DNA of 35,934 nt. Source: a virus (lineage: Duplodnaviria > Caudoviricetes). Positions 2,823 through 21,349 of the stretch are shown here, piece after piece. The number at the start of each line of letters is the position of its first letter. Within the stretch, counting starts at the first letter, position 1. Under the pieces are notes generated by a model that worked only from the letters and a program-made list of their open reading frames with translations, searched no databases and was not told where the DNA came from. A program made the translations under genes and the position numbers. The DNA is taken from positions 1 through 35,934 of IMG/VR virus record IMGVR_UViG_3300007764_000004, one strand, 5' to 3'.

Positions 2823-5800
2823 TTAAGACGTTGTAAAAGGTTTTTTCGTTGTAAGTGTTAGGGCGTTCGAAGTCGACCTGTTCTGGGTTATGTTCGCGTC
2901 CCCGACGTTCCAGGACCATATCCTTTCACCGTCGCAGCCGACCCAGACCATTGCGTCTTCGAATTCGAAGTAATCGATATAAATCGAATTACTTAAGGGG
3001 GCATTCCCGGCGACTGTCGAAGCGTTCGTCGGGTTGTTTATTGTTACGGGGTTATACTGATAAACTGCGGACCCGATAATCCTATATCCGACCGAATTCG
3101 AGTCGTCGACAGTTCCCCCGCGTTGATTGATTCCAGAAGCCGTCTGTAAAAATTCTGCGGCCCCTGCGTCGTCCGCGTCGAATCGATAAAGCGAATTCCC
3201 GTCCCAGGTCCATATATAATTCGTCCCCCCGATCGTCCCGACTGCCTGGGGGCCCTGGGTTATGCTGTTCGTCTGCCAGCGACTTTCGAAGTTCTGGATC
3301 GCAGATCCGGCCAGGGTATAAATATAAATGTTATGCTGGAAGGTCCCGACCCGATGGGTCCCCAGGATTATCCTGTCGTTTTTATTATCGATATGGATCC
3401 TTTCCAGGTCGGTAAATCCAGAATCGAAAACCTGTTCGAAATCCGATCCGTCGTACTTCCATTTATAAACGATCCCCCCCGTCGATAACCCATAGATCGT
3501 TAACGTCGGAACGTGAATCGCGATATCTAAAATCGAATATGGGGACAGGTCCAGCCCAGTCCCGATTTCTTCCGAAAAGTCGCCAGACAGGGTTTTAAAT
3601 TCTTCCGTATCGGTATCGACGAAGAAGATTTCGGGGGCCAGATCGGACCAGTCGACCGTCGTCGCCTGGGCGTCCGGATCGCTACAGTCGATACATTCCC
3701 CATTCCTGGGGGCGACCTTCTGGCCGGCATAATCGACCGTCGCGCGCGGAATCTCAAAAGCGGACGTTACCGTCCATTCGACGGTCCAGGTTTCGTCGGG
3801 GATCGTCGCGGATAAGTCGTTCCCCATAGTCTTCGTAAAGGTTTCCAGGACGATACCAGAAAACGATTTACAGACCAGGGTCCCGGCCCAGTTTCCGGTT
3901 AAGACTAAGCGAAGCCCCTGGACGGGGAAGGTATAGGAAAGAAAAGCCGACGTTCCAGAGAAACGACCGAAGCCGTCGACGGAATCGCCTTCCGAAACGA
4001 CCCATAACGGACCGACGAAATCGTCGTCGCGTCGGCCTTTCAGTTCCCATACAGGGGCAGAACCCGAACCCGATCCAGACCCAGAACCCAGTCCGGCGCC
4101 CGAACCGATTCCCCCAGAACCCGACCCCGAACCGATTCCCCCAGAACCCGACCCGACGCCAGCTGGCGTTTCTGGGTCGCGTTCTGTTGCTACGGTCATA
4201 TTCCAGGGGAAGCATTCCAGGACGTTCGCGGACTGACAGATCGCGGACGACTTATGTCGGGAAACGGTTTCGAATCTGGCCCCCGCGAACTGGCCGGCCC
4301 CGCGTCGGACCGGAATAAGACTTCCTTTCGTGTCGACGAACCAGGACTGGACGACGGACTTCCCGATCCCGAAGATCCGGAATTCGCAGCCCTGGTTAAT
4401 CATTTTTTTCAAATGATGAATCTGGGACGACCGGATTAAATCCAGGCCGAACGAATCATCCTTCGAAATGATTTCGGCCCGTCCCCCGTCGAAGTAATCG
4501 GTCGACGACGTCGGGGTCCCTATGTTAAGGGCTTCGTTTCCCATTACGTCCAGGACGTTCCCCGTTCTAGGTTGCCATATAACGATCCGGTCGTAACCGT
4601 CGCGATGGATCGTCCCGTAACATGCTTCTTCTGGGCTTCCCCCAGACCCAGAACCCGACCCAGGGAAGACGCCCCCAGACCCAGAACCCGACCCAGGGAA
4701 GACGCCCCCAGACCCAGAACCCGACCCCGCAGGGACGCAGCCGGTCCCCTGGCCGTCCCCGTCCCCGTCTGTCGGACAGTAAATCGCGTTCCAGTATGTC
4801 GTCGGGTCGTTGGGGTTTCGGGAATACGTTATGTGTTGGGCCGTCGACCAGTTATCGCGGACGATCCAGACGGCCTTTAATTTCCCCGGCCATTCCTCCG
4901 TAATAGTAGAAGGCCGGCTTCCTGCCGACGTCTGGGTCGCCCCCAGGATAATCGGATTCGAATTCGCGAATAGCGTTCCAGCGATTGATCCCGAACCGAT
5001 TAACGTTCCCCCCGACCAGTATTCGATATCGACATTCGACCCGTTCTTAACGAGTTTTGCGCTTACTTGATACCATGTTCCAGTCGAAAAATTCGACGAC
5101 CTTCCGACCGTTACCCCCTTAAATCCCGACGAATAAAAGTAAGTGTTTATTTCGTCGGGGGCGTTATTAAACGACTGGCCGTAATTCGTCCCCAGGCCGA
5201 TTCGTTTGTTAATGATTCCACAAAAGCCGGACGACGGGAAAGACGTATAATTCACCATATAGTGCATTATTACGTTATCCGTAATATCCAGGGAATCCGC
5301 GTCCGCGACTACTGCGTAATCGTCGACCCCGTCGAACTCCATCGAATTAATACCGAAGGGGGCGTCGGAAACGGACGCGGCCCCCGTCGTTTCATTATCC
5401 GCGTCGTTTTGATTCCCAGACATATCGGGGAAGATATCCCCAGACTGGTCGCCCCCATTAATCCCCATCTTCCATTTATACGGGACGACAGAATCGGCCC
5501 CGTGTTGGCCGTCCCTGGCTGGCTGCAGGATCGACCCGTCCCCAGAACCAGATCCAAAGATTTCCCCAGACCCCAGAAGGCCGTCCGGTTTCCACCAAAG
5601 GAAGACCCCGTTTTCCCGGCCAGGGTCGCCAGATCCAGATCCAGATCCCCAGGGGCCAGGGAAGGGGCCCCCAGATCCCGACCCTTCGTTCGGATAAAGG
5701 GTCGGTTCCCTGGTCCAGAATTCGACTTTTGAAAGGTTCGGGTTATTGTTCAGACTTAAATAAAACTTCCCTGGAAGGGGTTCGGCCCCGTCGACGTCCC

Positions 5801-6659
5801 AGGAAAAGCGAAGCGACCCTTCGTCGAAGACGTTCGGGCCGTCCCCGTCCAGTCCTTCGAAAACATAGTCGATCAAAACATTATGATCGATTACGACCGG
5901 ATTCCCTGGAAGGGGGATCGGCCCTTCGATCATATCCGCAGTTACGGGGATAAATACCTTTCTGGCCCCCGATCCTGGCTTCGCGTAATCGCGTTGCAAT
6001 AAGCCCAGGCGAATCCCGATCGATACGACGGTCGCGTCCCTTGCGGCCCCCGAGTAAGACCAGGACGTCGTCCCCGTCGCCCCTGCGTTCGCAGTATTCC
6101 AGAAGCCGGCGATCTGGTTTCCCCCAGACCCCGTCGTCGTAACGTCGAAGAATGAAGTAAAACCCGACGCGGGGGTTATGGTCTGGGCCGAATTCGTATC
6201 CAGGGAAACGATACTTATCCATAAGACGTCGTCCGTTTCGAAGGTAAGGGAAGGCCCAGTCGCGGGATTCGAAGCCGAATTAAACTGGATCTGGGGGGTA
6301 ACGTCCAGGCCGTCGTCGCCCCGAATCTGGATAATTACAAAATTCTTTAATTCAGAAGCCGACCCCGACCAGTAATAACCCGTCGTCGAATCGGGGTCTT
6401 CGTCCCTGGGGGTTACAAATTTTTCATAAAGGAAGACCGAAGGGTCGTCGGCATTATGGGAAGCCAGGGGATTAAATCCCGCGTCGTCGCCCCCAGACCC
6501 ATTAAAAAGAATAGGGGGCGAACTTGCGTTCGGGCTTCCATCCGAACCGACGACGGCCAGAAGCCGGTCCCCGACGCGTAACTTTTCGACGGTCGTCGTT
6601 ATGTCGACGGCTGCGGACGAATCGGAAGAAGGGAAAACATTTATTATCTGGGCCGGCAT
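2823..6659 (-). CDS. Large multidomain tail/receptor-binding protein (DUF2341-like, LamG/ConA-like, copy of the upstream tail protein, C-terminal beta-propeller-like region) with Gly-Ser repeats
   Basis: 1278 aa; SMEFDGVDDYAVVADADSLDIT is a LamG-type signature; multiple GSGSG runs; position after the tail-tip genes. Confidence 0.8.
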   Translation of the reverse strand: MPAQIINVFPSSDSSAAVDITTTVEKLRVGDRLLAVVGSDGSPNASSPPILFNGSGGDDAGFNPLASHNADDPSVFLYEKFVTPRDEDPDSTTGYYWSGSASELKNFVIIQIRGDDGLDVTPQIQFNSASNPATGPSLTFETDDVLWISIVSLDTNSAQTITPASGFTSFFDVTTTGSGGNQIAGFWNTANAGATGTTSWSYSGAARDATVVSIGIRLGLLQRDYAKPGSGARKVFIPVTADMIEGPIPLPGNPVVIDHNVLIDYVFEGLDGDGPNVFDEGSLRFSWDVDGAEPLPGKFYLSLNNNPNLSKVEFWTREPTLYPNEGSGSGGPFPGPWGSGSGSGDPGRENGVFLWWKPDGLLGSGEIFGSGSGDGSILQPARDGQHGADSVVPYKWKMGINGGDQSGDIFPDMSGNQNDADNETTGAASVSDAPFGINSMEFDGVDDYAVVADADSLDITDNVIMHYMVNYTSFPSSGFCGIINKRIGLGTNYGQSFNNAPDEINTYFYSSGFKGVTVGRSSNFSTGTWYQVSAKLVKNGSNVDIEYWSGGTLIGSGSIAGTLFANSNPIILGATQTSAGSRPSTITEEWPGKLKAVWIVRDNWSTAQHITYSRNPNDPTTYWNAIYCPTDGDGDGQGTGCVPAGSGSGSGGVFPGSGSGSGGVFPGSGSGSGGSPEEACYGTIHRDGYDRIVIWQPRTGNVLDVMGNEALNIGTPTSSTDYFDGGRAEIISKDDSFGLDLIRSSQIHHLKKMINQGCEFRIFGIGKSVVQSWFVDTKGSLIPVRRGAGQFAGARFETVSRHKSSAICQSANVLECFPWNMTVATERDPETPAGVGSGSGGIGSGSGSGGIGSGAGLGSGSGSGSGSAPVWELKGRRDDDFVGPLWVVSEGDSVDGFGRFSGTSAFLSYTFPVQGLRLVLTGNWAGTLVCKSFSGIVLETFTKTMGNDLSATIPDETWTVEWTVTSAFEIPRATVDYAGQKVAPRNGECIDCSDPDAQATTVDWSDLAPEIFFVDTDTEEFKTLSGDFSEEIGTGLDLSPYSILDIAIHVPTLTIYGLSTGGIVYKWKYDGSDFEQVFDSGFTDLERIHIDNKNDRIILGTHRVGTFQHNIYIYTLAGSAIQNFESRWQTNSITQGPQAVGTIGGTNYIWTWDGNSLYRFDADDAGAAEFLQTASGINQRGGTVDDSNSVGYRIIGSAVYQYNPVTINNPTNASTVAGNAPLSNSIYIDYFEFEDAMVWVGCDGERIWSWNVGDANITQNRSTSNALTLTTKKPFTTS
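4099..4154. repeat. 27-bp perfect tandem repeat x2 (encodes GSGSGGIGS)
   Basis: Unit cccgaaccgattcccccagaacccgac at 4099-4125 and 4126-4152. Confidence 0.9.
4639..4727. repeat. 33-bp perfect tandem repeat x2.7 (encodes GSGSGSGGVFP)
   Basis: Unit cccccagacccagaacccgacccagggaagacg at 4639, 4672 and partially at 4705. Confidence 0.92.
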
Positions 6660-6671
6660 AAACTCGAGTTT

Positions 6672-7586
6672 TTAAGAAGTCCAGGAAGGAATCCCAGTAA
6701 CGACCCCGTCGTCCCCGACATAAAGGCCGACCCTGGGGTCGACGGCCCGACCAGGCGAATCGACGGTAACTTCTGGGATCTGGCCGGCAGAATCGACCGA
6801 TAACCGGATCGTCCAGGTCCCGTCTGGGATTTTAATCGTCTGTTCGGTCGCGTCCGTCTTCGATACGCTGGACAAAAGATTCCCCGACCAGTCGAAACAT
6901 AATAAAGAAAAAAGGACGTCTTCGCCCCCTAGACGAAGGGTCGACCCTTGACAGGGAAGGACCAGATCCAGAATGGGGTTTCCCCCTGCAGACTTCGTTA
7001 ACTGGCCGGCTACGTCGACCGACGCCCCGTCCCCCCTGGGATCCCAGGTCGGCCCTTCGAATCCCTTCCGGTACGTTTCCAGAAGTTTCCAGTTCGACGC
7101 GTCCCCAGACCCGAAAAGAGATCCAGACCCCGATCCGGCTTCCCCTGGAATTAATATCGATTCTGTACATTCCCAGGGAATATTCCCGATCAAATTATCG
7201 GACTGGCCGAAGGCCCCGTCGAAGACGATCGACGAAAGTCTGGCGATCGCTCCGGCCATATTGCCGGCCCCCCGTCTGGCGTCCTGAACGTCCAGGAGTT
7301 CCCCGACTGCCCATATATCGTGTACGGCCATTCCGAAAAGGTAAGCGGTTACAGGCCATTCCAGGTCGGCCATAATGCGAAGATACTGGATATCGCATTC
7401 GCGATGGATCGGGACTTCCAGAAGACGGGTTCGCGAAAGGACGCGTTCGGTCCCGTCGAAGGCCATTCGTTTTTCGTCGACTGTCGGGGACGCGGTATTC
7501 TGGGCCATTAATGCCCCGATATCGACGACCATTCCAGTAACTTCCTGGATAAAAATAATTCTTATATATCCGTCCCTGGCTGGCAT
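6672..7586 (-). CDS. Putative tail-tip/minor tail protein
   Basis: 304 aa in the tail operon; paralogous to an internal domain of 2823..6659; contains EAGSGSGSLFGSGD. Confidence 0.7.
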   Translation of the reverse strand: MPARDGYIRIIFIQEVTGMVVDIGALMAQNTASPTVDEKRMAFDGTERVLSRTRLLEVPIHRECDIQYLRIMADLEWPVTAYLFGMAVHDIWAVGELLDVQDARRGAGNMAGAIARLSSIVFDGAFGQSDNLIGNIPWECTESILIPGEAGSGSGSLFGSGDASNWKLLETYRKGFEGPTWDPRGDGASVDVAGQLTKSAGGNPILDLVLPCQGSTLRLGGEDVLFSLLCFDWSGNLLSSVSKTDATEQTIKIPDGTWTIRLSVDSAGQIPEVTVDSPGRAVDPRVGLYVGDDGVVTGIPSWTS

Positions 7587-7589
7587 AGT

Positions 7590-9479
7590 TTAGGAAGTCG
7601 ACAGTTCGACGACGTTTTCGTAAGCGGAATATTTAGTTATTTCTTCGTGGAAGAAAAACTGCAAGTAATACGGGATAAATTCGTCCGTTCCTTTCGACAG
7701 GGTATTCCTGGGGGTAAGGGTTCCGAAATGCGTCCCCTTAATAACCCGAAGGTCCAGGGGGGCCCGTGCAAGTCGAACGAAGGCCGATAAATGGGCCAGA
7801 TCGAAATACTTCGAATCTGCCCCGACGATCTGTCCCCGCCACTGCCCCGCAGTTTCCCAGGACAGGACCCCGATATCGATTTCGATCTGGGGACTTAACG
7901 AAGCCCGAAGGATCTGGGCCTGTAACCATTTCCTTCTAAACTGGACGACGTTTCCTTCTGCTATATTCCCCCCCATTTCGATCGACTTAAAACGGGCGAC
8001 CCAGGTCGAAAACGGGGCCGAATTATCCAGGACATTAATATCGATTTCGAAGTCGTCCGTTTTAAGCCATAAGTCCCAGTCCGACCCAGTATCCCCCGCG
8101 ATCCGGAACTGGATATGGCCGTCGTTCGGGAAGTCGCCCCCGACCGATACGACGAACGTCCCGTCTTCGGTAACGGAAAAAGGATCGGTCCCGAAGGGGT
8201 CTGGGGTAAATGGACCAGACGTCGGAATGTTTAAGGACGTCGGGGTCGCGGTCCATTGACCGAAGGCGTCCCCAGATCCAGGGGGTTCGCGATAATAGGT
8301 CGTCCCGTCTGGGTCCAGGGGGACGGCCCGAATTTCGATCGGGAAGGAAGCCGTCCCCGATCCCCCCGAAGTATAGACGGCCCCATAACTGAAAGAAATA
8401 AAAAATAAAATCTGTTGGCCCTTTTTGAAGAATGGCCCGTTATGCCAGATTTCGTTCCCCCCCGATTCGATATAAGCCCAGTTATTCGCGGACTGGTTAA
8501 GAATCCCTGGCGTGTTCTGTTCCCAGTTATCATTATCGGTCGACGTGTTCCATCCTTCGTTAAATTCCCCGCGATTAATCTGGGTATCGACGACGTCGTC
8601 GTCTTCGTATCCCCTTTCAATTTCGACGGCTGCGTCCGCGTTATATATCCCCTGTTTCGCTTCGTCGTCGGATATCAGAAGGACCAGTCCCCCCGAATAT
8701 GCGGTTTCCGAAATCGAATCCGCGTCGACTTCGTAAAGGTTCGACAGGCGATCGGCTGCGTCGTATGCGTTCCCTAATAACCAGGGCTGCGCAACGAACC
8801 AACGACGGGGCCAGGACAGGTCGTTAAAAACGACGGCCTGGAATCCTTCTGCAAGGTCGGCCAGTTCATCCCCTGCAGGTTCGACGTTCCCGTCTGTTTC
8901 GGTATAGGTTCGAATTATATCGCTGAAACGGAATTTATCCATCCAGGCCCCCGTCGACCCGACGCGGTTTCCACGCCAGCCGAAAAGATACTGTATATTC
9001 TGGGAATGCAGGGCGTCGACCAGAAGATCGACGAACAGACCGTTTAAGGTTATCGCCTGGGTCGCTGTATACGCTTCCTGTTCGGGGGTCCTGGTCATTC
9101 CACAAAAGCCGATTAACTGGGTTACTGGTTGTTTTACCCCAGTCTGTAAAAGCGTAAAGGACGACGCCAGTCGCAAGAAAAGCCGGATATCGTATTCCTG
9201 CAGGGAATCGTATATCCGCAGCCGGAAGGCGAACTGGGACGACGTCCGAATATCTTCCCATATAACGCCCCCTGGATCGTTAATCGAAAAATTTACTTCG
9301 GCCGGCATTATGTACTGGTCCAGGGCTTCGTCGAACTTATCCTGGCCCCATTGAATGTTCGCGTCTTTATCGATATAAAACGTTCTGGGGTTCAGGGTCG
9401 CCCCTTCCTTTTCCAGATCGAAAAACCATTTCCGCGTCCGGCCTGGAAGTATGCCCCGATATTTTGGAGTTATCGCCAT
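7590..9479 (-). CDS. Putative tail-tip (hub/baseplate) protein
   Basis: 629 aa, directly after and translationally coupled to the tape measure gene; acidic and beta-rich. Confidence 0.7.
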   Translation of the reverse strand: MAITPKYRGILPGRTRKWFFDLEKEGATLNPRTFYIDKDANIQWGQDKFDEALDQYIMPAEVNFSINDPGGVIWEDIRTSSQFAFRLRIYDSLQEYDIRLFLRLASSFTLLQTGVKQPVTQLIGFCGMTRTPEQEAYTATQAITLNGLFVDLLVDALHSQNIQYLFGWRGNRVGSTGAWMDKFRFSDIIRTYTETDGNVEPAGDELADLAEGFQAVVFNDLSWPRRWFVAQPWLLGNAYDAADRLSNLYEVDADSISETAYSGGLVLLISDDEAKQGIYNADAAVEIERGYEDDDVVDTQINRGEFNEGWNTSTDNDNWEQNTPGILNQSANNWAYIESGGNEIWHNGPFFKKGQQILFFISFSYGAVYTSGGSGTASFPIEIRAVPLDPDGTTYYREPPGSGDAFGQWTATPTSLNIPTSGPFTPDPFGTDPFSVTEDGTFVVSVGGDFPNDGHIQFRIAGDTGSDWDLWLKTDDFEIDINVLDNSAPFSTWVARFKSIEMGGNIAEGNVVQFRRKWLQAQILRASLSPQIEIDIGVLSWETAGQWRGQIVGADSKYFDLAHLSAFVRLARAPLDLRVIKGTHFGTLTPRNTLSKGTDEFIPYYLQFFFHEEITKYSAYENVVELSTS

Positions 9480-11515
9480 TAAGTCGTCCTGGTTCTTATG
9501 GATCCCCTGGTCTGGTCGACGACGACTTCGACGTTATCCAGGTCCGCTTTTAACTTTTGAAGGTCCCCCGTAAGTTGCCCGGATAACTGGATCCGGATCG
9601 TCTGGGACCCCGATCGTCCGTCGATCGCTGGACGATCGCCCCTGTTCATTGCTTCCAGAATCGGTCGGTTCCTGGACGTTGATTCGCGGTTCATTACGAA
9701 TTCCCCGTCCGATACGCGGATTACATTCTGGTCGACCCCAGGCCGGCCCCGAACGATACCCCCTTCGTTAAACCCTGGAAGGACCGAAGAAAACAGGGCC
9801 TTAATTCCTGCAGCGACCAGGGGACCGATAACCAGGGCCAGGGGTCCCAGGGGGGCCAGGGCCCCCGCGATCGTTTGGGCCAGTTTCGCAGTTATGATCT
9901 GTTTCGCCTGGGAAAGTAAAGTTTCGGTTACGTTCCCCGATAATAAGACGGCCTGGGTCGAATTCGCGATCTGTTGTTCCAGGGCTACTTTCTGAGCTTC
10001 GGCCAGGGCTGCAGCGGCTTCCTGTTCCTTTTCCCTGGCTTCTAATCTTTCCCTGGCTCGAGCCAGGGCCATTTCGTGAAGTTGGGCCCTTTGATCTTCG
10101 ACGATTAATTCCTGTTCGGCCAGGGCTTCCAGACCGTCGCCTTCGGATTCCAGGCCGGCTTTTTTGAGTCTGGCCCGTTCTTCTTCGATCTGCAAGATTT
10201 CCCGATTTACGGCCAGAAGTTCTTCGGTTATCTGGCCTTCCTTAATTAATTCGTCCTGGCGATCCTTAAGGATTTTTAATCGGTCGTCTTCCTTTTTATC
10301 TTCGGCGCCCGACGTCGAACTGGATCCGGCCGGCGACCCCCCCAGTAAATTCGCAAGGGCCCCCGACGCAGTCGACGCGGTTTTCGCCTGTTCTTCCAGG
10401 GCGTCGTCCCCGTTCCGAATAGCTTCGATTAACTGGTTTTCCCCCTGGATCATTGCGTCCAGGGCCAGTCGTCTAATTTGTAACTGTCGGATATTTTCTT
10501 CCTGGGCTTCGGTATTCAGTCCCAGGAATTCCCGACTTTTTAAAATCGCATTCTGGACGGTTTCCTGGATATCGACGACCGTCTTCTGGAAGTTTCGATA
10601 ACCGATAACCATCTGGCGAATACCGACGCGGACGGATCTGTTAAATCCCCCTATATCGTCGATTAATCCGACCAGGAACTTAAGGGCCTGTCCGACCGAA
10701 TTCCCGACAGACCGAACGAAGGAAGCCGTCTGTTTATCGTCAAGCATTAACCTTAAATCGGTCGCGACTTCTTCGATAACGGGACGAAGCCCTTCCCCCA
10801 GGGTTTCCGACAGATCGCCGGCCGAATTCTGGATCTGGACCAGGGGGTCGACGGCAGATTCGGCCAGACCTTGAAAGTTCGCGTCCAGGATTTCGGTAAG
10901 AAGGTTTATTCGGTCCATTCCTTCGGACGCTTTAAACTGTTCTTCCTGGGCGTCCGTTAAAGAAATCCCGTATCGTTTCAGGGCCGAAACCCCGTCCGTT
11001 AACGACTTCCCGATCGCGATCGCGACGGAATTAAGATCGGCCCCTTCCTGGCCGGCCTTCTGCAGACCTGCGGCCATATCCAGAAGACGGGGAAGAAGAA
11101 GCCCGACGCCCTGCGATCCCCCGACTTCCTTAAATGTTAATAACATGGTTGCAGCCGATAACTGGACTTCGTCCCCGAAATTCGAAACCGACTGTAACTG
11201 GGCGGCCAGGGCCTTTAATTTTGGAAGGGATTCTTCTGCACTTTCCCCCTGGTTCGTTAACGCCTGGGCCAGTTTGTTTTCCGCGATCTGTTGGATCCCG
11301 CGATCCTTTACGGCCTTCGATAAAGTTCGGAACGCTACGGCCCCGGCTGCGACGGCTGCGAAGGCGACCCCGACGACCTTCCCGAATTTCGACGCCCCCT
11401 TCCCGGTTTTATCCAGGGTCGTATCCAGTTTAGTCGCGGCCCCTTCGGAATCTTTGAGAAATTCGACGGTTCCGTTATCGTCGATTCGAAAAGTAATAGT
11501 TACGGGACGGGCCAT
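9479..11515 (-). CDS. Tail tape measure protein
   Basis: 678 aa, Ala/Gly/Leu-rich helical; LQSVSNFGDE and GVSALKRYGI segments typical of TMP; C-terminal FNEGGIVRG..G.D...RVSDGEFVMN; follows the frameshifted TAC. Confidence 0.88.
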   Translation of the reverse strand: MARPVTITFRIDDNGTVEFLKDSEGAATKLDTTLDKTGKGASKFGKVVGVAFAAVAAGAVAFRTLSKAVKDRGIQQIAENKLAQALTNQGESAEESLPKLKALAAQLQSVSNFGDEVQLSAATMLLTFKEVGGSQGVGLLLPRLLDMAAGLQKAGQEGADLNSVAIAIGKSLTDGVSALKRYGISLTDAQEEQFKASEGMDRINLLTEILDANFQGLAESAVDPLVQIQNSAGDLSETLGEGLRPVIEEVATDLRLMLDDKQTASFVRSVGNSVGQALKFLVGLIDDIGGFNRSVRVGIRQMVIGYRNFQKTVVDIQETVQNAILKSREFLGLNTEAQEENIRQLQIRRLALDAMIQGENQLIEAIRNGDDALEEQAKTASTASGALANLLGGSPAGSSSTSGAEDKKEDDRLKILKDRQDELIKEGQITEELLAVNREILQIEEERARLKKAGLESEGDGLEALAEQELIVEDQRAQLHEMALARARERLEAREKEQEAAAALAEAQKVALEQQIANSTQAVLLSGNVTETLLSQAKQIITAKLAQTIAGALAPLGPLALVIGPLVAAGIKALFSSVLPGFNEGGIVRGRPGVDQNVIRVSDGEFVMNRESTSRNRPILEAMNRGDRPAIDGRSGSQTIRIQLSGQLTGDLQKLKADLDNVEVVVDQTRGSIRTRTT

Positions 11516-11805
11516 TAAAACAGGGGTTTAATATTTTTTAAGGCGTCCTGGGCTTCCCTGTCGATTTCCCTTTGTTGATAAAACAGGTTCGACGTGCGAA
11601 TCCAGATAAGTAAGTCGGCCAGATCCATTTCGAAAACTGCGACCTGGAATTCGTGTGGACGAAGTCCCCCCATTCCCAGGATTATCGACTTCGCAGGGGT
11701 CCCAGTTCCCGGCAGACCTTCCGGAATTGCTGAACGACGATCTAACAACCTGTTAACGCGACTGGCCCTGTTCAGCCTAGATACAATCGCGACATAAAAT
11801 TTCCC
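11515..11805 (-). CDS. Tail assembly chaperone, C-terminal (gpT-like) part reached by -1 frameshift
   Basis: The -1 frame is open from the slippery site (GGG AAA TTT TAT GTC GCG...) through LLDRRSAIPEG to the TAA overlapping the TMP ATG. Confidence 0.8.
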   Translation of the reverse strand, partial: GKFYVAIVSRLNRASRVNRLLDRRSAIPEGLPGTGTPAKSIILGMGGLRPHEFQVAVFEMDLADLLIWIRTSNLFYQQREIDREAQDALKNIKPLF

Positions 11806-12128
11806 AGAAGATACCCCAGGAACGCTTCGTAAAGGTTCGGGGGCCAGGAATCCAGGTCGTATTTATCCCCGTTTTTCAACAGGATTTTAACGGCCTTTTT
11901 TACTTCGGAAAGTTTAGGGGCCTTTAAATTATCCAGGTCGACTTCGCCGGCCAGGACGACGTCCGCGTCCAGTCCCAGAAGGGGCGAAACCTTTTCGACC
12001 AGTCCCAGGGTTATCGGCTGGAACTTTAAATCTGGTCTTATTATGATTTCTTCGCCCCCTTCTGGGAGTTTACGACGCAGGAAATTCCCGTCCTTCTTTC
12101 TGCCGAACCTTTTAAATAAACCTTTCAT
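11772..12128 (-). CDS. Tail assembly chaperone (gpG-like), 118 aa
   Basis: ATG at 12128 (MKGLFKRF...) downstream of the tail tube stop; lies between tail tube and TMP genes. Confidence 0.8.
   Translation of the reverse strand: MKGLFKRFGRKKDGNFLRRKLPEGGEEIIIRPDLKFQPITLGLVEKVSPLLGLDADVVLAGEVDLDNLKAPKLSEVKKAVKILLKNGDKYDLDSWPPNLYEAFLGYLLGNFMSRLYLG
11796..11805 (-). other. Programmed -1 ribosomal frameshift site
   Basis: CTG GGA AAT TTT contains two in-frame X XXY YYZ heptamers (G GGA AAT and A AAT TTT). Confidence 0.82.
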
Positions 12129-12151
12129 AACGAACAAACGGTAAAGGTTAA

Positions 12152-12628
12152 TTAAGCCCCTGAACCGGACCCGACAGGTTCGGTCTGCAAAGTTTGACCA
12201 GTCGCATTTCCCGAACTGGTATAGGAAAAGGACGCCTTTTCCAGACCCCCCGCGTCGGGGATCGCCCGTTCGTTCCATACGACCCCGCAGCCGAACTGCC
12301 CCCCGACGATCGTATAGTTATCCTTACCCAGTTCGCGAAGGCGAAACCAGACCAGGGTTAAATCGTCGGACGCGGTTTTTAACCCGTTCTGCCATGTATC
12401 GGTCGATTTAAGGGCGACCGGCTGGACGCCATTATTTAACCAGATTGCAGCCAGGGGGATAAGGTTCGTTCCGTCGACGGTCTGGGCGACTTCGCCAGGA
12501 CGCGTCGAACCGTCGCTTAATAACTGCCCCCTGGGGATAGTAACGAACGTTCCGGAACTTGTGTTATCGGGATCGTAATCGGTCGCGTATTCTAGCGACT
12601 GCAGGACCCCGCGATGGATATCAGACAT
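12152..12628 (-). CDS. Major tail (tube) protein
   Basis: 158 aa directly upstream of TAC/TMP; ends ...EPVGSGSGA. Confidence 0.75.
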   Translation of the reverse strand: MSDIHRGVLQSLEYATDYDPDNTSSGTFVTIPRGQLLSDGSTRPGEVAQTVDGTNLIPLAAIWLNNGVQPVALKSTDTWQNGLKTASDDLTLVWFRLRELGKDNYTIVGGQFGCGVVWNERAIPDAGGLEKASFSYTSSGNATGQTLQTEPVGSGSGA

Positions 12629-12640
12629 ACCGTTTCCTCT

Positions 12641-13192
12641 TTAAGTTATGATTACAGTAAATTCGGCATAATGGACGAAAAGATCCCGGTTCCCAAAAGC
12701 CGAAACAGGGAAGTCGGGAATAACGATCGACGCGGGGGGTTTCGCTTCGACGACCCAGGAATCGCCAGAAGCCGGAAAGATTTCGAACCCCCCGACGCCA
12801 TTAAAATAAGAAAGAAGCCCCTTCGGGGTTTTACCCAGAAGAAGGTTATTAAATTTCTGTTGGGTCGATCCTTCGTATTCGTCGGATTCTTCGTACTGAA
12901 ACTGCAGAAGGATTCGATAATCGATCGCTTCGACCAGGCGTCCGGTTCCGGCCCCCCCTTCGTTCGGGGCTTCTAAGGTCGGTTGAAGGACCAGATCGAC
13001 AGGGGCGACCCTGGCCCAGAATACCGGATTTCCGAAGATCGCGTCGAAATCGTATTTCGATTCCAGGCCCAACATATACCCAGTTACAAATTTTTCGACG
13101 ATCGGGGTTCCGACATTATGCGCCGTTAACAGGTCTTCGACCTTTGATCGAAGCCCTTCCAGTTTGTCGTCTGCGTTCAGAGTTAAAGACAT
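12641..13192 (-). CDS. Putative tail terminator/completion protein
   Basis: Position just before the tail tube gene; ends in a beta-strand (HYAEFTVIIT). Confidence 0.55.
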   Translation of the reverse strand: MSLTLNADDKLEGLRSKVEDLLTAHNVGTPIVEKFVTGYMLGLESKYDFDAIFGNPVFWARVAPVDLVLQPTLEAPNEGGAGTGRLVEAIDYRILLQFQYEESDEYEGSTQQKFNNLLLGKTPKGLLSYFNGVGGFEIFPASGDSWVVEAKPPASIVIPDFPVSAFGNRDLFVHYAEFTVIIT

Positions 13193-13746
13193 TAGGGTAA
13201 TTCCTGGTTTAAAAAATCGACGACGATATTAAGGGCCCGAAACCGGATTTCGTCCCCTTCGTCGTCTAGGGCCGGTTGTATGTAAGATCGTTTCGGCATA
13301 TCAATTTTAAAAACGGTCTTCTTCGTAAGGGCCATAAATTTCCATTTCTCGTCCTTCGTATCGTAGAACATAGCCCAGAAAAAGGAACGCATTTTCGCAG
13401 TTACGGGGATCGATATTTCCCCCCCGAATTCATGGATAGCAGCATAAGGGACGAAGATTTCGATTATAAAGTTAATCGTCCGACCCGAAACTTCGATCCG
13501 ATTCTTCGATCCGGCCCCCCCTTTTACGGCCCTGGCGAGTCGTCCAGTTTGCTTTATAAGCCCCCCGTCGTCCCCAGGCTGGCGAACCTTCGGTCCTTCC
13601 TGCATATAGGTCTGGACCGATCGCGTCGAAAAACGCGTCGTCGCCATTCTAGCGATACGCTTTCTTAACTGGGGAAGACGGGCCAGGGCTTCGGATAACG
13701 ACTTCTGCAAGTCGTCGACATTATGTTCGACGCGAAAGTCTGCCAT
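13192..13746 (-). CDS. Neck/tail-completion protein (HK97 gp10 / virion morphogenesis family)
   Basis: TGRLARAV, VPYAAIHEFGG and MPKRSYIQPAL motifs. Confidence 0.8.
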   Translation of the reverse strand: MADFRVEHNVDDLQKSLSEALARLPQLRKRIARMATTRFSTRSVQTYMQEGPKVRQPGDDGGLIKQTGRLARAVKGGAGSKNRIEVSGRTINFIIEIFVPYAAIHEFGGEISIPVTAKMRSFFWAMFYDTKDEKWKFMALTKKTVFKIDMPKRSYIQPALDDEGDEIRFRALNIVVDFLNQELP

Positions 13747-13994
13747 TACGAAGTATAAATATCGACAGGGGGACCCGTCGCGGTTACTGCTATCGGGGGG
13801 AATCCTTCCTGTCCAGGGGCCCAGTATAAGTTAATCTGGATCAGACCCCCGGCCAGAATCCGTTCCCGTTCTTCTTCGGTCGGTTCCCAGACGGTAACGA
13901 ATGCCCCGTCTTCTAACTTCGCCGGCAGATCCCCGACGTCTTTCCCGTCGCCCTTTAAGACGACGGTCGTTCCGATAAATTTCTTTGGTTCCAT
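13746..13994 (-). CDS. Hypothetical protein
   Basis: 82 aa, translationally coupled; DLPA...VWEPTEEERERILAGG...PPI resembles small phage proteins. Confidence 0.65.
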   Translation of the reverse strand: MEPKKFIGTTVVLKGDGKDVGDLPAKLEDGAFVTVWEPTEEERERILAGGLIQINLYWAPGQEGFPPIAVTATGPPVDIYTS

Positions 13995-14002
13995 TTCGCG
14001 TC

Positions 14003-14764
14003 CTATGCTGGAATATGTCTGTAAGTATTGAGTTTCGCCAGCTCGCGATCGACGAACCCAGACGTTACCTTATTCCGCTTTATCTTCATTCGGTCCGCGT
14101 CGACTTCGGATTCGTCGACCCCGATTAATCGGTTATATTCCCAACGAAGGGAAGCGATAACCAGATCGTTACAGACCGTTTGAATATCGAAGGGAAGTTC
14201 GGGGACTTCTGCGTCCTGGTCCAGACCTGTAAGGGCCGAAGTATTAAACGCGGAATTCCACGTTTCCCCCGATCCTGGGACGTCCAGATCCGGCCGGCGA
14301 TACCCTGCGAAAACCTGGGCCTGGACCGGCCAGTCGTCCAGGTCGTCGTCGAAATGGATAACGGCCAGATCCATTTCGACGCCTTCGATCGCCATTTCGT
14401 CGGCCAGGGTCGCGTCGGCATTAACCGAAACGATCTGGACGACGGGCCATTCCTGGAAGTATGCCGAATACCTGGGGTTCTGGGAAGGAAGGGTATATCG
14501 CGAATCCGGCTTCCATGCGTTCGAAAACGAATCGACGACCCAGGTCTGGTCGACCAGGCGAACCATAATCTTTCGATTTAAATGGTTTTCAATTCGTCGC
14601 GTATAGTTCTTAATGAACCTTAAACATGTTTGCTGGATTTCTTCGGTATCGCCGGAACCGTTCGGCGCCCGAAGCGCTTCTTCGATTGCTTTTCCCAGAC
14701 CCCCCAGGGATTGATCGGCTACGATCGAAGGGGTCGTTAAGTCGGTATAATCAGACGTTAACAT
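14003..14764 (-). CDS. Head-tail connector/adaptor protein
   Basis: IENHLNRKI, WPVVQIVSV, AGY...LPFDIQTVC and C-terminal LNTYR, typical of gp6/gp15-like adaptors. Confidence 0.75.
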   Translation of the reverse strand: MLTSDYTDLTTPSIVADQSLGGLGKAIEEALRAPNGSGDTEEIQQTCLRFIKNYTRRIENHLNRKIMVRLVDQTWVVDSFSNAWKPDSRYTLPSQNPRYSAYFQEWPVVQIVSVNADATLADEMAIEGVEMDLAVIHFDDDLDDWPVQAQVFAGYRRPDLDVPGSGETWNSAFNTSALTGLDQDAEVPELPFDIQTVCNDLVIASLRWEYNRLIGVDESEVDADRMKIKRNKVTSGFVDRELAKLNTYRHIPA

Positions 14765-16274
14765 TTTTTTCGATCCATTCTTTTTTCAAGGTTTCGACGC
14801 GTTCGTCTGCAGTTCCGGCCCCCCTTATCTGGTCGACGACGACCCCGTCTTCGCAGATATCATAATAACCCCCCCCGCGATGGATCGCTTCGAATTCGGG
14901 GATCTTTGATTCGTCCAGGGTTTCGACCTGTCCTTCATGGTCGCCCTTTCCAGGGAAGGGGATAATTTCGTCCGCTTCTGGTTCCCTGGCATACTGCAGT
15001 TTAAGAAGGTCCCTTTTATGGGACGCGTCGGTCCAGAATGTTCGCCCTGGCTTCGCGTTAATCCCTGAAACGACCGAATTCCCCCTGGGGGTAAATCCCC
15101 GGTTCGAATTCTGCAATCTTACCCGGGCGATTAATTGAAACTGTTCCATAACTTTTCCTCTTATCATTTTTCTTTTTTCGGGGATGTAAATGGACGTCGC
15201 GTTCTTCTTTCGAAAACGTTCGACAGTTTTCCGGATCGCGTCCCCTGCACGGTCCGACGATTTACCGTCCGTAAATTTAAAAACTTGTTCGACGGCTTCC
15301 CGTCTTTTTTTCTGGCGTTCGGGTTTATCGGCCAGGGCTTCGATTACAGCCGAATATAAATCCCCTGGCTTATCGACCTGGATCCCGACGTCTGCAGCCG
15401 ACCAGTATCTTAACCCGTGTTCTACCCCCTTTCTATAATGGGGGCAGTTCATAACGACGACGGGGCGACCGTTACCCCCTTCGCCGGCCGACGCGAATTC
15501 GTAAAGGGTCGACATATGGTCCATAATATACAGATCGGCCCGACGCATAACTTCGGAAAAGTTACCTATTACTGGAACCTTCCTTTTCCGATATTCTGGG
15601 GTCCAGTGTTTTAACGCCCTGGGGTGACCGTGACCATATAGGATAAAATCCTTTCCGCTTTTCTTCGCCAGTTCGTCGAGCCCTGGGAGCATATGCCAGA
15701 AGGCCGACCGCGTTTCGGGGACGACCTTGCAATCCCAGTGTGACGAAAAGACGACGACGGGGATATTGTTCTTCGGGGGGTCTAGTTCTCCCGAATGCCA
15801 GGGGTCCAGTTTAGGGCAACCGACGACGAAAACTTCGGCTTCGGGATACAGGGGTCGATCCCTGTTCGCGGGATGATTCCCAGGGAATATTAACGCTGCA
15901 ATATTTTTACGGCCTGGATATCCTGCATACGACGACTGAATCCGAGTAAAGGACTGGCCGGCCCCGTGTTGGGTAAATATCGCATAACGTCCAGCCCTGG
16001 CGACCTGGATCTGGTCCCCCGACGCAGAACAGACGACCAGGCGTCGACGGTCCTTCGACATATGGATCCTGGCCTGGGCCCTGTTCCCGTGGTAGGTTAC
16101 GACGTCTTCGATCCCGTGTACAGTCCTGGCGTATTTTTCCAGATAATTCGGAAGGATAAAGTCGCCCCGAAATTCGTCTGGGGTCGAATGATACATGGGG
16201 ACTAAATGGTCCAGGAAATGTTTTTCATGGGCCAGGAAGTCCGCTAAAATCCAGTGTTTATTTTTTTTCGCCAT
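14751..16274 (-). CDS. GT-B enzyme, CDP-glycerol glycerophosphotransferase (TagF)-like, with an extra C-terminal domain
   Basis: TQHG, VGCPKLD, GHPR, ADLYIMDHMSTLYEF..RPVV and DGKSSDR motifs; roughly 150 extra C-terminal residues. Confidence 0.72.
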   Translation of the reverse strand: MAKKNKHWILADFLAHEKHFLDHLVPMYHSTPDEFRGDFILPNYLEKYARTVHGIEDVVTYHGNRAQARIHMSKDRRRLVVCSASGDQIQVARAGRYAIFTQHGAGQSFTRIQSSYAGYPGRKNIAALIFPGNHPANRDRPLYPEAEVFVVGCPKLDPWHSGELDPPKNNIPVVVFSSHWDCKVVPETRSAFWHMLPGLDELAKKSGKDFILYGHGHPRALKHWTPEYRKRKVPVIGNFSEVMRRADLYIMDHMSTLYEFASAGEGGNGRPVVVMNCPHYRKGVEHGLRYWSAADVGIQVDKPGDLYSAVIEALADKPERQKKRREAVEQVFKFTDGKSSDRAGDAIRKTVERFRKKNATSIYIPEKRKMIRGKVMEQFQLIARVRLQNSNRGFTPRGNSVVSGINAKPGRTFWTDASHKRDLLKLQYAREPEADEIIPFPGKGDHEGQVETLDESKIPEFEAIHRGGGYYDICEDGVVVDQIRGAGTADERVETLKKEWIEKNVNV

Positions 16275-16287
16275 TCTAACAAACGTA

Positions 16288-16321
16288 AAGGGGGACCAGG
16301 GCGTCGACCCCGATCCCCCTT
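16288..16321 (-). terminator. Intrinsic terminator/attenuator after the capsid gene
   Basis: On the - strand GGGGGATC-GGGG-tcgacg-CCCT-GGTCCCCC, then TTTACGTTTG. Confidence 0.7.
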
Positions 16322-16353
16322 CGGCTATTCGTGAAACAAAAGAAGACGGACCG

Positions 16354-17688
16354 TTACGATCCCGAACCCTGGGCGTTCGCCAGCGCTCCGGTTACGAACG
16401 ACGTCGGGCGATAGACTGTAAGGGCCAGTCTTTCTTCGGCGCGAATCGTAACCAGATTCTTCCGGAAGTTATCGGAATCTTCGGTCGAAAACTGGACGGC
16501 TGCGTCCATTCGGTCCCAGACCTGGGCCCCGAGTGAAAAAGCCCCGACCAGGAATTCCCCATCTGGGGCCGACTGCGAAGGAACGACGGGAAGACCCCAG
16601 ATTCGGGGGGCCGTCGTATTCTGCGGATTCGTGAAGATATACCGATTCTGGGAATCCTTCGTTAGTTCGATGGAAGCCCAGTTAAACGGGGGAAGGACGA
16701 TTCCCGTCGCGGGGAAATTCGCTAACGTAACCTGCAGGATCGCAGCCCGAAGCGTATCCAGATCCGTCGCGGACGCTACCCCGAGATTCGTAAGAAGGCC
16801 GGCATTAAAGGCCGTCGCCTGGGTAATCAATCCGTTCAGATTGTTTGTCGTCCCGTCCCCGTTCAGAAGTTGATTATCTTCGACCAGAAGGACCAGGAAG
16901 CGGACGCGACTGTCCAGGTAACTTTGCAGACCGACTGCGTCCTGTAAAATCTGGGTCGACGCGATTACATAAGTCGCGATCGTCTCGACTTCTTCGGACG
17001 CTGCAGCGAAATCGAAATCGGATTCGCCTTTATCGGCCCCCTGGCCGGCCTGTATGCCGGCTGCATCCGTTACCGCAGATTCACGAACGAAGCGGACCAG
17101 ATCCGAAGACGTTCGACCGATCGGCAGAAGGTCCCGGATTAAAAGGGGTTGTTCCCCTGGCCGAACGATCCCTGGAACGCGCATATAATCGACTGCGTCC
17201 CCTGCGGACGCGTCCGCGTTCGTTATCGCTTTCATATCCCCAGGGACGTCCCCTGTCAAAAGCGGATAAGAACGACGATCGTCGGCAGACAGTCGCCAGG
17301 ACTTAAGGGCGATTTTACGCGATCCCCTGGACTTCGTAATTTCGGTTAAGTCGATCGGGTTTTCCTTCCTGGTCGCTGCATTGAAACAGACGATCCCTGG
17401 GGTTTCGGGGCGACCTTTGAACGCTGCAGACTTACGCAGTTTTTCGGCCATTTCGGTTTCGAACTTATCCTGGCGTTCTTCGATTTCTTTCTGTTTCAGG
17501 ACCAGAAGTTCGTCGACTTTCTTTTCGACGTCTTTCGAAATCGTCTGGACCTGTTCCTTAAGGTCTGCGACCCCCTTCTGGGCTTCTTCGCCCTGTTTGA
17601 TCTTCGGTTCCAGATCGGCCATAACGTCCGTAAGACCCTTATTTATGCCGGCGACGGATTCCTTAATTTGTTCTTCGATTGAAGGCAT
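16354..17688 (-). CDS. Major capsid protein, HK97 family, with N-terminal delta (scaffold) domain
   Basis: Coiled-coil N-terminus; EDNQLLNGDG, RIWGLPVV, NFRKNLVTIRAEERLALTVYRP; ends QGSGS. Confidence 0.96.
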   Translation of the reverse strand: MPSIEEQIKESVAGINKGLTDVMADLEPKIKQGEEAQKGVADLKEQVQTISKDVEKKVDELLVLKQKEIEERQDKFETEMAEKLRKSAAFKGRPETPGIVCFNAATRKENPIDLTEITKSRGSRKIALKSWRLSADDRRSYPLLTGDVPGDMKAITNADASAGDAVDYMRVPGIVRPGEQPLLIRDLLPIGRTSSDLVRFVRESAVTDAAGIQAGQGADKGESDFDFAAASEEVETIATYVIASTQILQDAVGLQSYLDSRVRFLVLLVEDNQLLNGDGTTNNLNGLITQATAFNAGLLTNLGVASATDLDTLRAAILQVTLANFPATGIVLPPFNWASIELTKDSQNRYIFTNPQNTTAPRIWGLPVVPSQSAPDGEFLVGAFSLGAQVWDRMDAAVQFSTEDSDNFRKNLVTIRAEERLALTVYRPTSFVTGALANAQGSGS

Positions 17689-18958: not shown

Positions 18959-19866
18959 TCGTCGATTAATTTTTCGAAGGGTTCGGTCGTACAGCGACAG
19001 TTTATTACGTTCCCGGCAGACCCGACCGGATCCCCTGGAAACATAAGGGATTCCCCCGAAACCGTAAAGGGTTCCGATATCTTAACCCTTTGTCCAGATT
19101 CGTCCGGTTCCAAATGGTCGAACTTCCCTGTTCGGACCAGACCGTCGCGTCGACTTATCCAGCCCTTAAAAGGGAACCCCGCGTCTTCGAATGCCTGGAT
19201 CTGGCCGACTTCGAAACCTGGGGTCGCTGCAGTCTGGCCGATCGTCTGGGCCCTGGACCGTGAAACGTTGAAGGCCCTTTGAACATATGGGACGAAATCT
19301 TCGGCCCCTTCGTCTAGTCCCCTTTGAATATTCTTAACGAGATCGTCCAGGACGGAATCGTTAATCCCCTTTGTCTTCGAAAGGACTTCGGTAAGGGTCT
19401 GTCGGATCCGATCGGCTTCTGGGTCGAAGTCCAGAACCGCGTCGACCCTGGAAAGTCCGACCTTAAAACCCTGCAGGGCCGTCGCTGCAATCGAAGGGCC
19501 GAACCGTTTAACGGTTTCTTTATACCAGAATTCTATATCGAATATCTGGAAGACCATATCCAGGGCGTCTTTCTGGATATACTTTTTCGACTGGATCCGT
19601 TTAAGATTTTTTAACGCTTCCTTTTCCTGGTCGGCAAACTGGCGAAGGGCGACGTTTCGGATCGGCTTTTCCCCTTCCCGTTTAAAGGCGTCGACCATAA
19701 ACCATTCCGCAGTCCGGACGGCTTCGGTCTGGTCTTTCTGCAGGGTATAAAGAAGGCCGGAACGACGAAAACGTCCGATCTTAAACAGGACGTCGGAATG
19801 GACCTGGAAGGCCCTGGTCGGGCCGACCCTGGGTCGATACGCTTTTATCTGGCATTTATCACACAT
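18955..19866 (-). CDS. Minor head protein, MuF/SPP1 gp7 family
   Basis: KGWISRRDGLVR...H...LMFPGDP.GSAGNVINCRC; likely start at the ATG at 19866 (TAATG overlap). Confidence 0.9.
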   Translation of the reverse strand: MCDKCQIKAYRPRVGPTRAFQVHSDVLFKIGRFRRSGLLYTLQKDQTEAVRTAEWFMVDAFKREGEKPIRNVALRQFADQEKEALKNLKRIQSKKYIQKDALDMVFQIFDIEFWYKETVKRFGPSIAATALQGFKVGLSRVDAVLDFDPEADRIRQTLTEVLSKTKGINDSVLDDLVKNIQRGLDEGAEDFVPYVQRAFNVSRSRAQTIGQTAATPGFEVGQIQAFEDAGFPFKGWISRRDGLVRTGKFDHLEPDESGQRVKISEPFTVSGESLMFPGDPVGSAGNVINCRCTTEPFEKLIDE

Positions 19867-20723: not shown

Positions 20724-21349
20724 TACTTTTTCCGTGTTTTATTGCGATGGATTCCGGCCTTAATAGCCTGGTCGACTGGGTCGATCCCGATCCAGTCCAG
20801 GATCCTTTTAAGTCCGCGTTCTGAATTAAGGGCGTCGACGTATACGACCAGGACGTTATCGGGTCCGCATTCCTCGAGCGACGACGGGACCAGTTCGTTA
20901 TATACATGGTCCCAGTACTGGCCCAGGGCCTTCGCTTTTGACGGGCCAGGGAATTTCGGGAAACAGTTAAACCAGGGCGAACGGGGCGTCCCCCCGTTTT
21001 TCTTGTGTTGCCAGTTATTCCGATTCCTGGATTTACGAAGGAAAGACCCGATAAATTCTTCCCGTCCCCGTTTCAGGACGACGACCTTCGCCCCCCTGTC
21101 GACCAGAAGGGGAATATTATTCGTCCATTGAAGGGCGACGTCCCCGTAATATCTGGCCCCCGAATTCTGTCCCCTTCGGATAAGTTTATCGACGAAGACC
21201 TTCTGGCCGACCCGATCCCAGGGAAGGGTTTTCGAAAACGTTTCATGGGATACGATCGCCCCCTGTTGGGCGTTCAGGAAATGGGCGAAAGACGTCGTTC
21301 CACAACGACCAGAACCGGCCCCGATAACCAGTTTAAATTCCGTAATCAT
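20723..21349 (-). CDS. PAPS-dependent sulfotransferase
   Basis: N-terminal 5'-PSB loop VIGAGSGRCGTTSFAHFLN; 3'-PB-like KVVVLKR....FIGS; C-terminal LVVY....G...ILDWIG. Confidence 0.82.
   Translation of the reverse strand: MITEFKLVIGAGSGRCGTTSFAHFLNAQQGAIVSHETFSKTLPWDRVGQKVFVDKLIRRGQNSGARYYGDVALQWTNNIPLLVDRGAKVVVLKRGREEFIGSFLRKSRNRNNWQHKKNGGTPRSPWFNCFPKFPGPSKAKALGQYWDHVYNELVPSSLEECGPDNVLVVYVDALNSERGLKRILDWIGIDPVDQAIKAGIHRNKTRKK

Follow-up and report, generated by a model that had tools for sequence, protein, structure and literature searches.

Are the short Gly-Ser-Gly(-Ser) motifs, or tags, that recur at the ends and in the interior of the structural proteins of some phages sites to which a glycan is attached? 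The question is raised by IMGVR_UViG_3300007764_000004, a linear virus record of 35.9 kb (positions 1 to 35,934, hereafter the window; completeness estimate, 41%), the minus strand of which holds a siphophage late operon where genes for predicted glycan-modifying enzymes stand among those for tagged particle proteins. Its order is terminase, methyltransferase, portal, glycosyltransferase (GT; 304 residues), GT (323 residues), sulfotransferase-like protein (208 residues), GT (285 residues), gp7-like protein, protease, HK97-fold capsid, GT-B (507 residues), adaptor, neck, terminator, tail tube, tape measure, and proteins of 629, 304, and 1278 residues. We consider it probable (about 0.72) that the tag serines are O-glycosylated in the cytoplasm by the phage enzymes and that the glycan is further decorated, probably by sulfation. 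An initial annotation of the sequence had proposed that the tags are a shared glycosylation sequon giving a proteoglycan-like coat, and all the motifs it quoted are present in six proteins:

16354..17688, minus strand: HK97-fold major capsid protein, ending QGSGS-stop, tag at 16357-16368 (Pfam Phage_capsid, E 5.5e-46)
12152..12628, minus strand: predicted tail tube protein, ending VGSGSGA-stop, tag at 12158-12172 (lies between terminator and chaperone/tape measure)
14003..14764, minus strand: predicted head-tail adaptor, internal PNGSGD at 14651-14659 and VPGSGE at 14267-14275 (gene order, synteny)
7590..9479, minus strand: 629-residue predicted tail protein, SGGSGT at 8355-8369 and PPGSGD at 8271-8279 (gene order, synteny)
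6672..7586, minus strand: 304-residue predicted tail protein, GSG cluster EAGSGSGSLFGSGD at residues 151-161, 7104-7136 (gene order, synteny)
2823..6659, minus strand: 1278-residue predicted tail-tip protein, 31 GSG in 15 runs (gene order, synteny)

The tail tube, adaptor, terminator, and the 629-, 304-, and 1278-residue proteins have no match in Pfam, PHROG, or NCBIfam, and they are named as virion proteins because of gene order and synteny.

Compared with within-protein shuffles (1000 each), the 11 predicted virion proteins hold 41 GSG triplets where 4.06 are expected, and still 10 versus 1.76 without the 1278-residue protein (p=0.001), whereas the 34 non-virion proteins hold 4 versus 1.75 (p=0.10), a difference between structural and nonstructural proteins that the initial annotation had anticipated. 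The excess is specific to serine, because Gly-Thr-Gly (GTG, 3 vs. 3.4) and Gly-Ala-Gly (GAG, 5 vs. 3.8) are unenriched in the virion proteins, which also rules out a general glycine-rich composition as the cause of the tags. The codons are varied (Ser: TCT 25, TCG 18, other 5; Gly: GGG 33, GGA 18, GGT 17, GGC 7), ruling out a single DNA repeat as their origin. The description of the tags as spread across the virion proteins needs narrowing, since GSG is absent from 5 of the 11 (portal, tape measure, gp7-like protein, 184-residue neck protein, and 183-residue terminator). Likewise, the GSG of non-virion proteins had been explained in part by cofactor loops, and two outside such loops were missed, YLGSGDD in the methyltransferase and EVGSGQ in a 282-residue protein.

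The residues flanking the runs do not bear out the comparison, made at the outset, with Ser-Gly sites near acidic residues. Asp and Glu make up 11.3% of the residues within 5 positions of the 23 GSG runs vs. 13.3% in the background, and an acidic-flank sequon was rejected for want of enrichment; only the position directly after the run is acidic more often (8 of 22 runs, p=0.005, post hoc). Basic residues are scarce around the runs (2.7% vs. 9.3%) and proline is frequent (11.3% vs. 4.5%). The capsid and tail tube tags are true protein ends, because no conserved read-through or frameshift extends either protein in the window and five relatives. In the window, an open +1 frame links the capsid end to the 507-residue gene, and there, as in L114 (L-numbers label the viral loci compared with the window), another open frame overlaps the end of the tube; neither is conserved across the five relatives, which rules out the tails being linkers by read-through or frameshift. 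The C termini of HK97-fold capsid proteins and siphophage tube proteins face outward, and the tags are presumed on this basis to be exposed at the surface; a preprint on the Che8 capsid (10.1101/2022.09.09.507160) offered nothing on this point.

Conservation is strongest at the capsid end. Among 120 listed homologs, ranked, the best 19, which include the window's own capsid, comprise 18 ending in Gly-Ser (GS) and 1 ending in GSGA, compared with 2 GS ends in the next 101. In a quick tree built from the 60 best homologs, the tail is clustered, requiring 3 changes vs. 11.6 for shuffled labels, and the neighboring group ends in Thr. Nine of 23 profile homologs of the tail tube end in GS. The head, neck, and tail genes are homologous to those of Salinibacter ruber phages, so the host is suggested to be Rhodothermota-like and probably not an actinomycete. 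In the adaptor, site 1 is GSG and site 2 is [GA]SGETW in all five close orthologs, and both sites are missing in two Salinibacter-type orthologs. The GSG cluster of the 304-residue tail protein is kept in 3/3 relatives, L001, L114, and L290, and its site is unchanged in the first two. Orthologs of the 1278-residue protein contain 12, 11, and 16 GSG; its residues 686-987 are a paralog of the 304-residue tail protein in which the same-site tag has grown to a 32-residue GS array, and near-identical repeats occur in the protein, VFPGSGSGSGG three times. In L271 (9409-10887), the tail terminator ortholog has an extra N-terminal domain attached via a 20-GSG array of GSGSGE/V repeats.

The candidate glycan-modifying enzymes of the operon are as follows:

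19866..20723, minus strand: GT-A glycosyltransferase, 285 residues (Pfam GT2; B4GALNT1-like model)
21333..22304, minus strand: GT-A glycosyltransferase, 323 residues, paralog of the 285-residue enzyme (Pfam GT2, E 7e-14; 29% identity)
20723..21349, minus strand: predicted sulfotransferase, 208 residues (Pfam score of an ortholog, Atlas structural neighbors)
22306..23220, minus strand: GT2/SpsA-fold enzyme, 304 residues, family mostly viral (Atlas; structure model)
14751..16274, minus strand: predicted GT-B transferase, 507 residues, next gene after the capsid (Pfam Glyphos_transf, 25.1 bits; cut-off, 22.1)
24593..25276, minus strand: S-adenosylmethionine (SAM) methyltransferase, 227 residues, in front of portal (weak Methyltransf matches below cut-off)

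The GT set thus comprises two Pfam GT2 matches above cut-off, one GT2-fold model, and one GT-B-type match. The 285- and 323-residue enzymes, hereafter the GT285 family, have DDD and GEH[AI]DFF motifs in common, and their family profile matches human B4GALNT1 in the PDB with E 5e-24, the next best being 4.5e-6. The 285-residue model (predicted local distance difference test [pLDDT], 94.8) likewise has B4GALNT1 as its best Foldseek match (E 1.6e-16; template modeling [TM] score, 0.65). The model of the 304-residue GT (pLDDT, 81) resembles the fucosyltransferase WrtF (VIA Z 19.5; root mean square deviation, 2.2; 183 aligned); this GT has no match among cultured phages, and a single-sequence scan with the 323-residue GT found no viral locus. 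The 208-residue protein itself has no Pfam match; its ortholog in L114 matches Sulfotransfer_4 (30.2 bits; cut-off, 22.8), and the Atlas structural neighbors of the 208-residue protein lie at TM 0.84-0.85. Orthologs of the 507-residue protein occupy the same place in L001, L111/L271, L114, L272, and L275, and its Glyphos_transf match is a weak one to cytidine diphosphate (CDP)-glycerol glycerophosphotransferases. The 227-residue methyltransferase, kept in L001, L114, and L272, is possibly a glycan methylase. Sequence searches of the PDB yielded no informative match for the sulfotransferase, the 507-residue protein, the 304-residue GT, or the 1278-residue protein, the matches of the latter being mostly engineered GS linkers. 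The listed fold matches of the 285- and 304-residue GT models contain no xylosyltransferase, an absence from a list that does not amount to exclusion, and include chondroitin and heparosan synthases, which score no better than other GT2 folds.

We find that tags and enzymes occur together. All six distinct relatives with a pair of GT285-family enzyme and sulfotransferase carry the tag on both capsid and tail tube (12/12 proteins), with capsid/tube ends TGSGA/PGSGS in L001, ASGS/GSGSGA in L114, TSGS/ASGS in L271, AGSGS/AGSGS in L272, SSGS/FSGS in L287, and TAGS/NAGS in Salinibacter phage 14_1; six further length-matched pairings of tailed capsids with GT285 homologs agree and partly overlap these relatives. 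We compared 263 loci with a complete capsid open reading frame, with the window copy removed, clustered by identity, and with flanks of up to 10 kb; GTs were called with 13 probes and by Pfam scans of filtered cluster representatives (148 of 206, with some of the others scanned too). At 90% clustering, a GS tail is found in 5 of 9 GT-positive clusters vs. 3 of 108 GT-negative ones (Fisher p 3.8e-5), and in 5/19 vs. 3/98 (p 0.003) under a loose count of candidate glycan-modifying genes. Dropping L026, which was found through its GT, gives p 3e-4 (strict) and 0.011 (loose). A homolog of gp110, a GT of mycobacteriophage Che8, is present in only 2 of 266 capsid loci (L045 and L076), and both capsids end in GS. 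L292 is a relative whose tail tube belongs to the same family and in which no probe for a GT matched from portal to tape measure; its ends are ALTGA and LQIQV. The number of tags tracks that of enzymes, from one recognized GT and terminal tags only in Salinibacter-type phages to four GTs and internal arrays in the clade of the window.

In the reading that we favor, the acceptors would be the tags at the capsid and predicted tail tube ends and inside four predicted minor particle proteins, with the late operon supplying enzymes and particle proteins together in the cytoplasm. The serine read would be one in small-Ser-Gly or terminal Gly-Ser, and it need not be the last residue because several tails end in GSGA. 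By parsimony, the Ser-attaching or first N-acetylhexosamine step is best ascribed to one of the two B4GALNT1-like enzymes (285 or 323 residues), because their family is the only GT recognized in the Salinibacter-type relatives that keep terminal tags, whereas members of the 304-residue GT family are found in two phages that lack tags. The chain would then be lengthened by the GT-B and the remaining GT-A enzymes from host nucleotide sugars, probably N-acetylhexosamine, and the sulfotransferase and methyltransferase would decorate it with host 3'-phosphoadenosine 5'-phosphosulfate and SAM. Several hundred capsid and tube copies would in this way acquire an anionic, hydrated coat that could protect the particle or hide it from host or predator binding. 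The proposal that the tag serines are acceptors for the encoded GT/sulfotransferase set stands in so far as the tags are nonrandom, Ser-specific, and conserved, travel with the enzymes, and resemble the ends of known glycosylated capsids. The internal tags may be used as well: the fixed adaptor sites argue for this, while the arrays between domains could be linkers. As a tentative and rather unlikely version, the system would be a proteoglycan mimic: a Ser-Gly sequon, portable among the ends and loops of any virion protein, would be recognized by a soluble B4GALNT1-like enzyme, partner enzymes would add a sulfated GalNAc-containing chain, and an anionic glycocalyx would result.

Several observations weigh against glycosylation of the tags. 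The association weakens at 80% clustering (p 6e-4 to 0.041, the latter for loose calls with L026 dropped) and at 70% with probe-only GT calls (p 0.037), and the supporting loci are mostly kin, so that the Fisher values overstate their independence. GT-negative calls are weak, because detection rests on 13 probes and partial Pfam coverage; Pfam named no GT in 61 of the 63 genes of Salinibacter phage 14_1, missing even the GT285 homolog, so a further GT could have been missed there. B4GALNT1 acts on sugar acceptors, and the initiator may therefore be another enzyme. Fourteen of the 23 tail tube homologs, few of them with known genomic context, have no GS tail. Both sites of the 629-residue protein are without GSG in L001 and L114 and are thus unconserved (L290 has one GSG), and the largest arrays, in the 1278-residue protein and the L271 terminator, lie between domains, where linkers are expected.

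The pairing of tags and enzymes also has exceptions. Tags had been expected to be absent from homologs without GTs; GS tails are indeed rarer there, with exceptions in both directions. Besides HK97, three capsid clusters (L246/L236, L262/L176, and L155) have GS ends with no GT found in flanks of 10 kb or less, and GTs are present without a GS tail in L112, L123, L239, and the L020 group. HK97 (L270), with capsid end FSSGS, gp6 end EEGS, and no GT detected, shows that a GS tail persists without the enzyme. At L270:39028-39054, just before gp74, HK97 retains 9 codons for ERRRAWRLA-stop, identical to the end of the gp110-like gene in L045, suggesting that HK97 lost its gp110-like GT gene; HK97 may once have been glycosylated and since have lost the enzymes, and the GT pair is complete in its relatives L045 and L076.

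Other glycan clusters accompany other capsid ends. L112 and L123 hold homologs of the 304-residue GT, and their capsids, like others of the neighboring group, end in Thr (AIT, TIT), which may be the acceptor in that group; the group has a different glycan cluster (L123:3811-7700 and L112:193-1625), which in L123 comprises GT1_4, an FkbM methylase, a sulfotransferase, and a pyruvyl transferase. In L276, L277, L278, L280, and L281, distant relatives of the 285-residue GT are fusion proteins in phage neck modules, those of L277 and L278 being 865-894 residues long and combining GT2, LicD, cytidylyltransferase, and GT2. Capsid-region proteins of L278 end LSSTS and LTTSS, and its predicted tubes end TASSS, VASAS, and TVSAS; a phosphodiester-linked virion glycan on Ser-rich tails is possible in this group.

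An alternative that overlaps with the favored reading, and that we think possible though doubtful, is that glycosylation is confined, as in Che8, to the serines at the capsid and tail tube ends, and that internal GSG are flexible linkers or turns grown by slippage. The interdomain position of the arrays, the near-identical repeats of the 1278-residue protein, the unconserved 629-residue sites, and the Salinibacter-type phages with terminal tags only would all follow from it. It sits poorly with the adaptor, where single Ser-Gly motifs keep fixed alignment positions in 5/5 close orthologs, with the failure of Ala or Thr to replace Ser, and with the restriction of arrays to the clade with the larger enzyme set. 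We find it improbable that the tags are unmodified, inherited structural features, with the enzymes directed at another target (a host glycan, the host surface, or other residues) and the co-occurrence reflecting kinship. HK97 and the Acetobacteraceae prophages end in GS with no GT found, GT clusters exist without tags, and the positive loci are mostly related; against this, tags and GTs are also paired in Che8, Corndog, L045/L076, and the Salinibacter type, whose capsid lineages and GTs are unrelated, the enzyme genes are embedded among the portal, capsid, and adaptor genes, and read-through does not explain the tails.

Quite improbable is direct sulfation or phosphorylation of the serines by the P-loop-like 208-residue enzyme, or a glycan made by the GT-B and linked through a phosphodiester. 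In its favor, tagged relatives contain the sulfotransferase as regularly as the GT, and in Salinibacter-type phages the sulfotransferase gene immediately follows that of the capsid. Against it, no sulfotransferase homolog was detected in Che8, Corndog, or L045/L076, all of which have the tail, and the sulfotransferase is always accompanied by a GT. A phosphodiester would suit the weak glycerophosphotransferase match of the 507-residue protein and the LicD and cytidylyltransferase fusions in phages with Ser-rich tails. We regard as very improbable a true proteoglycan-type system, with xylose on Ser-Gly, a linker, and a glycosaminoglycan chain: the Ser-Gly repeats, the acidic residue following 8 of 22 runs, the presence of chondroitin and heparosan synthases among the fold neighbors, and the combination of GalNAc-transferase-like enzymes with a sulfotransferase recall one, but the wider flanks lack acidic enrichment, those synthases are unexceptional among GT2 folds, and the best matches are B4GALNT1 and WrtF.

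Further observations concern the surroundings of the enzyme genes and the window at large. The 507-residue GT-B has a conserved 130-residue C-terminal extension resembling by eye the small post-capsid protein of Salinibacter phages; hidden Markov model comparison (E 0.08) did not confirm the likeness, and we do not retain it. The Salinibacter-type GT contains an inserted copy of a small protein encoded by its neighbor behind the capsid module (phmmer E 1.3e-7; GT and small protein at L026:25175-26293 and 24807-25154, and at L287:5610-6860 and 6864-7334), and this module possibly tethers the enzyme to the head. A long hairpin at 16287-16322, between the capsid and 507-residue GT-B genes, likely lowers downstream expression, and the frame spanning it stays open into the GT-B in this genome only. 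Several words are strongly avoided on both strands of the window (1-35934; AGATCT 0 vs. 16, CCGCGG 0 vs. 19, TGGCCA 0 vs. 32, GGCGG 4 vs. 39, GTCA 18 vs. 93), a pattern suggesting that the host has many restriction systems; a phage gene for a C5 DNA methyltransferase lies at 1182-1994. A 121-residue open reading frame at 30215-30580, possibly a truncated DNA-modification gene, matches a queuine tRNA-ribosyltransferase-like PHROG over no more than its first 100 positions.

Among known systems, animal proteoglycans attach glycosaminoglycans at Ser-Gly sites through a xylosyltransferase (GT14). The window is like them in its Ser-Gly repeats in flexible segments and its predicted sulfation, and differs from them in that its tag flanks are not enriched in acidic residues, neither a xylosyltransferase nor linker enzymes could be assigned, and assembly is cytoplasmic; the nearest solved relatives of its enzymes are B4GALNT1 and bacterial GT2s. 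The term proteoglycan-like, proposed in the initial annotation, is thus an analogy only and does not denote membership. If the proteoglycan mimic were true, it would provide a cytoplasmic toolkit of five or six genes for glycosylating ordinary GS linkers in bacteria. Human B4GALNT1 (GM2/GD2 synthase, PDB 9H6J) is the best profile and structural match of the GT285 family, followed by the polypeptide GalNAc-transferases (E 3e-9), but identity is ~21%, and the phage enzymes are soluble and single-domain, with a predicted activity.

The closest precedent, absent from the initial annotation and lowering the novelty of the proposal, is in mycobacteriophages, the only phages in which, to our knowledge, virion glycosylation has been shown. 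Freeman and colleagues reportedly described it in 2023 in Cell Host Microbe as O-glycosylation at a C-terminal serine (Che8 gp108-110, Corndog gp36-38, and Myrna). Capsid and tube end TGS and DGS in Che8 and VGS and GDS in Corndog; in Myrna, gp98 ends GGS and gp99 ends LRKA. Four papers report that the virions of these three phages are glycosylated by phage GTs (PMC12363180, PMC11256854, PMC10877033, PMC12582341). As there, GTs are phage-encoded in the window and its capsid ends in Gly-Ser as in Che8 and Corndog, and Corndog also has its GTs and a methyltransferase between portal and protease. The window tube ends GSGSGA, with Ser third from last, and 5 of 6 relatives end in GS. Unlike the mycobacteriophage type, the window has tags that are repeated, internal, and sometimes subterminal (GSGA), six tagged proteins, B4GALNT1-like enzymes, a GT-B, and a sulfotransferase. 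It has no homolog of the essential GT, Che8 gp110 or Corndog gp38 (no blastp or phmmer match; hhalign probability, 0.8 and 0.2), gp110 being Pfam GT25 whereas the window enzymes are GT2-like; homology to the Che8 and Corndog GTs was rejected, there being only a generic GT2 likeness to gp108 (hhalign 79%, 80 columns) and none to gp109 or gp110. The window system would work like the mycobacteriophage type, and with no homolog of the initiating enzyme it falls outside that type; virion O-glycosylation is likely here, as a known kind of system. A literature search that left subscription journals mostly uncovered turned up nothing published on a phage Gly-Ser sequon, sulfotransferase-linked virion glycans, or Salinibacter phage glycosylation.

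If true, our reading would extend virion glycosylation to a different host group and to unrelated enzymes and add sulfation, with a portable acceptor motif used both internally and at the C terminus. Bacterial glycoengineering would gain a useful tool in a cytoplasmic enzyme acting on Gly-Ser tags, and glycosylated phages could be flagged in genome data by their terminal GS. Nearest to the window stand the phages of Salinibacter ruber M8 (e.g., 14_1, OR896218; 184 records), which have homologs of the 285- and 323-residue GTs (E 4e-27 and 6e-20), of the sulfotransferase (E 2e-29), and of capsid, portal, and neck/tail genes, with capsid and tube both ending AGS. Unlike the window, they have one recognized GT and the sulfotransferase directly behind the capsid, no internal arrays, and genes annotated as hypothetical. 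This cultured group thus has a minimal version of the system (one recognized GT, one sulfotransferase, and AGS ends), in which glycosylation of the tags is directly testable.

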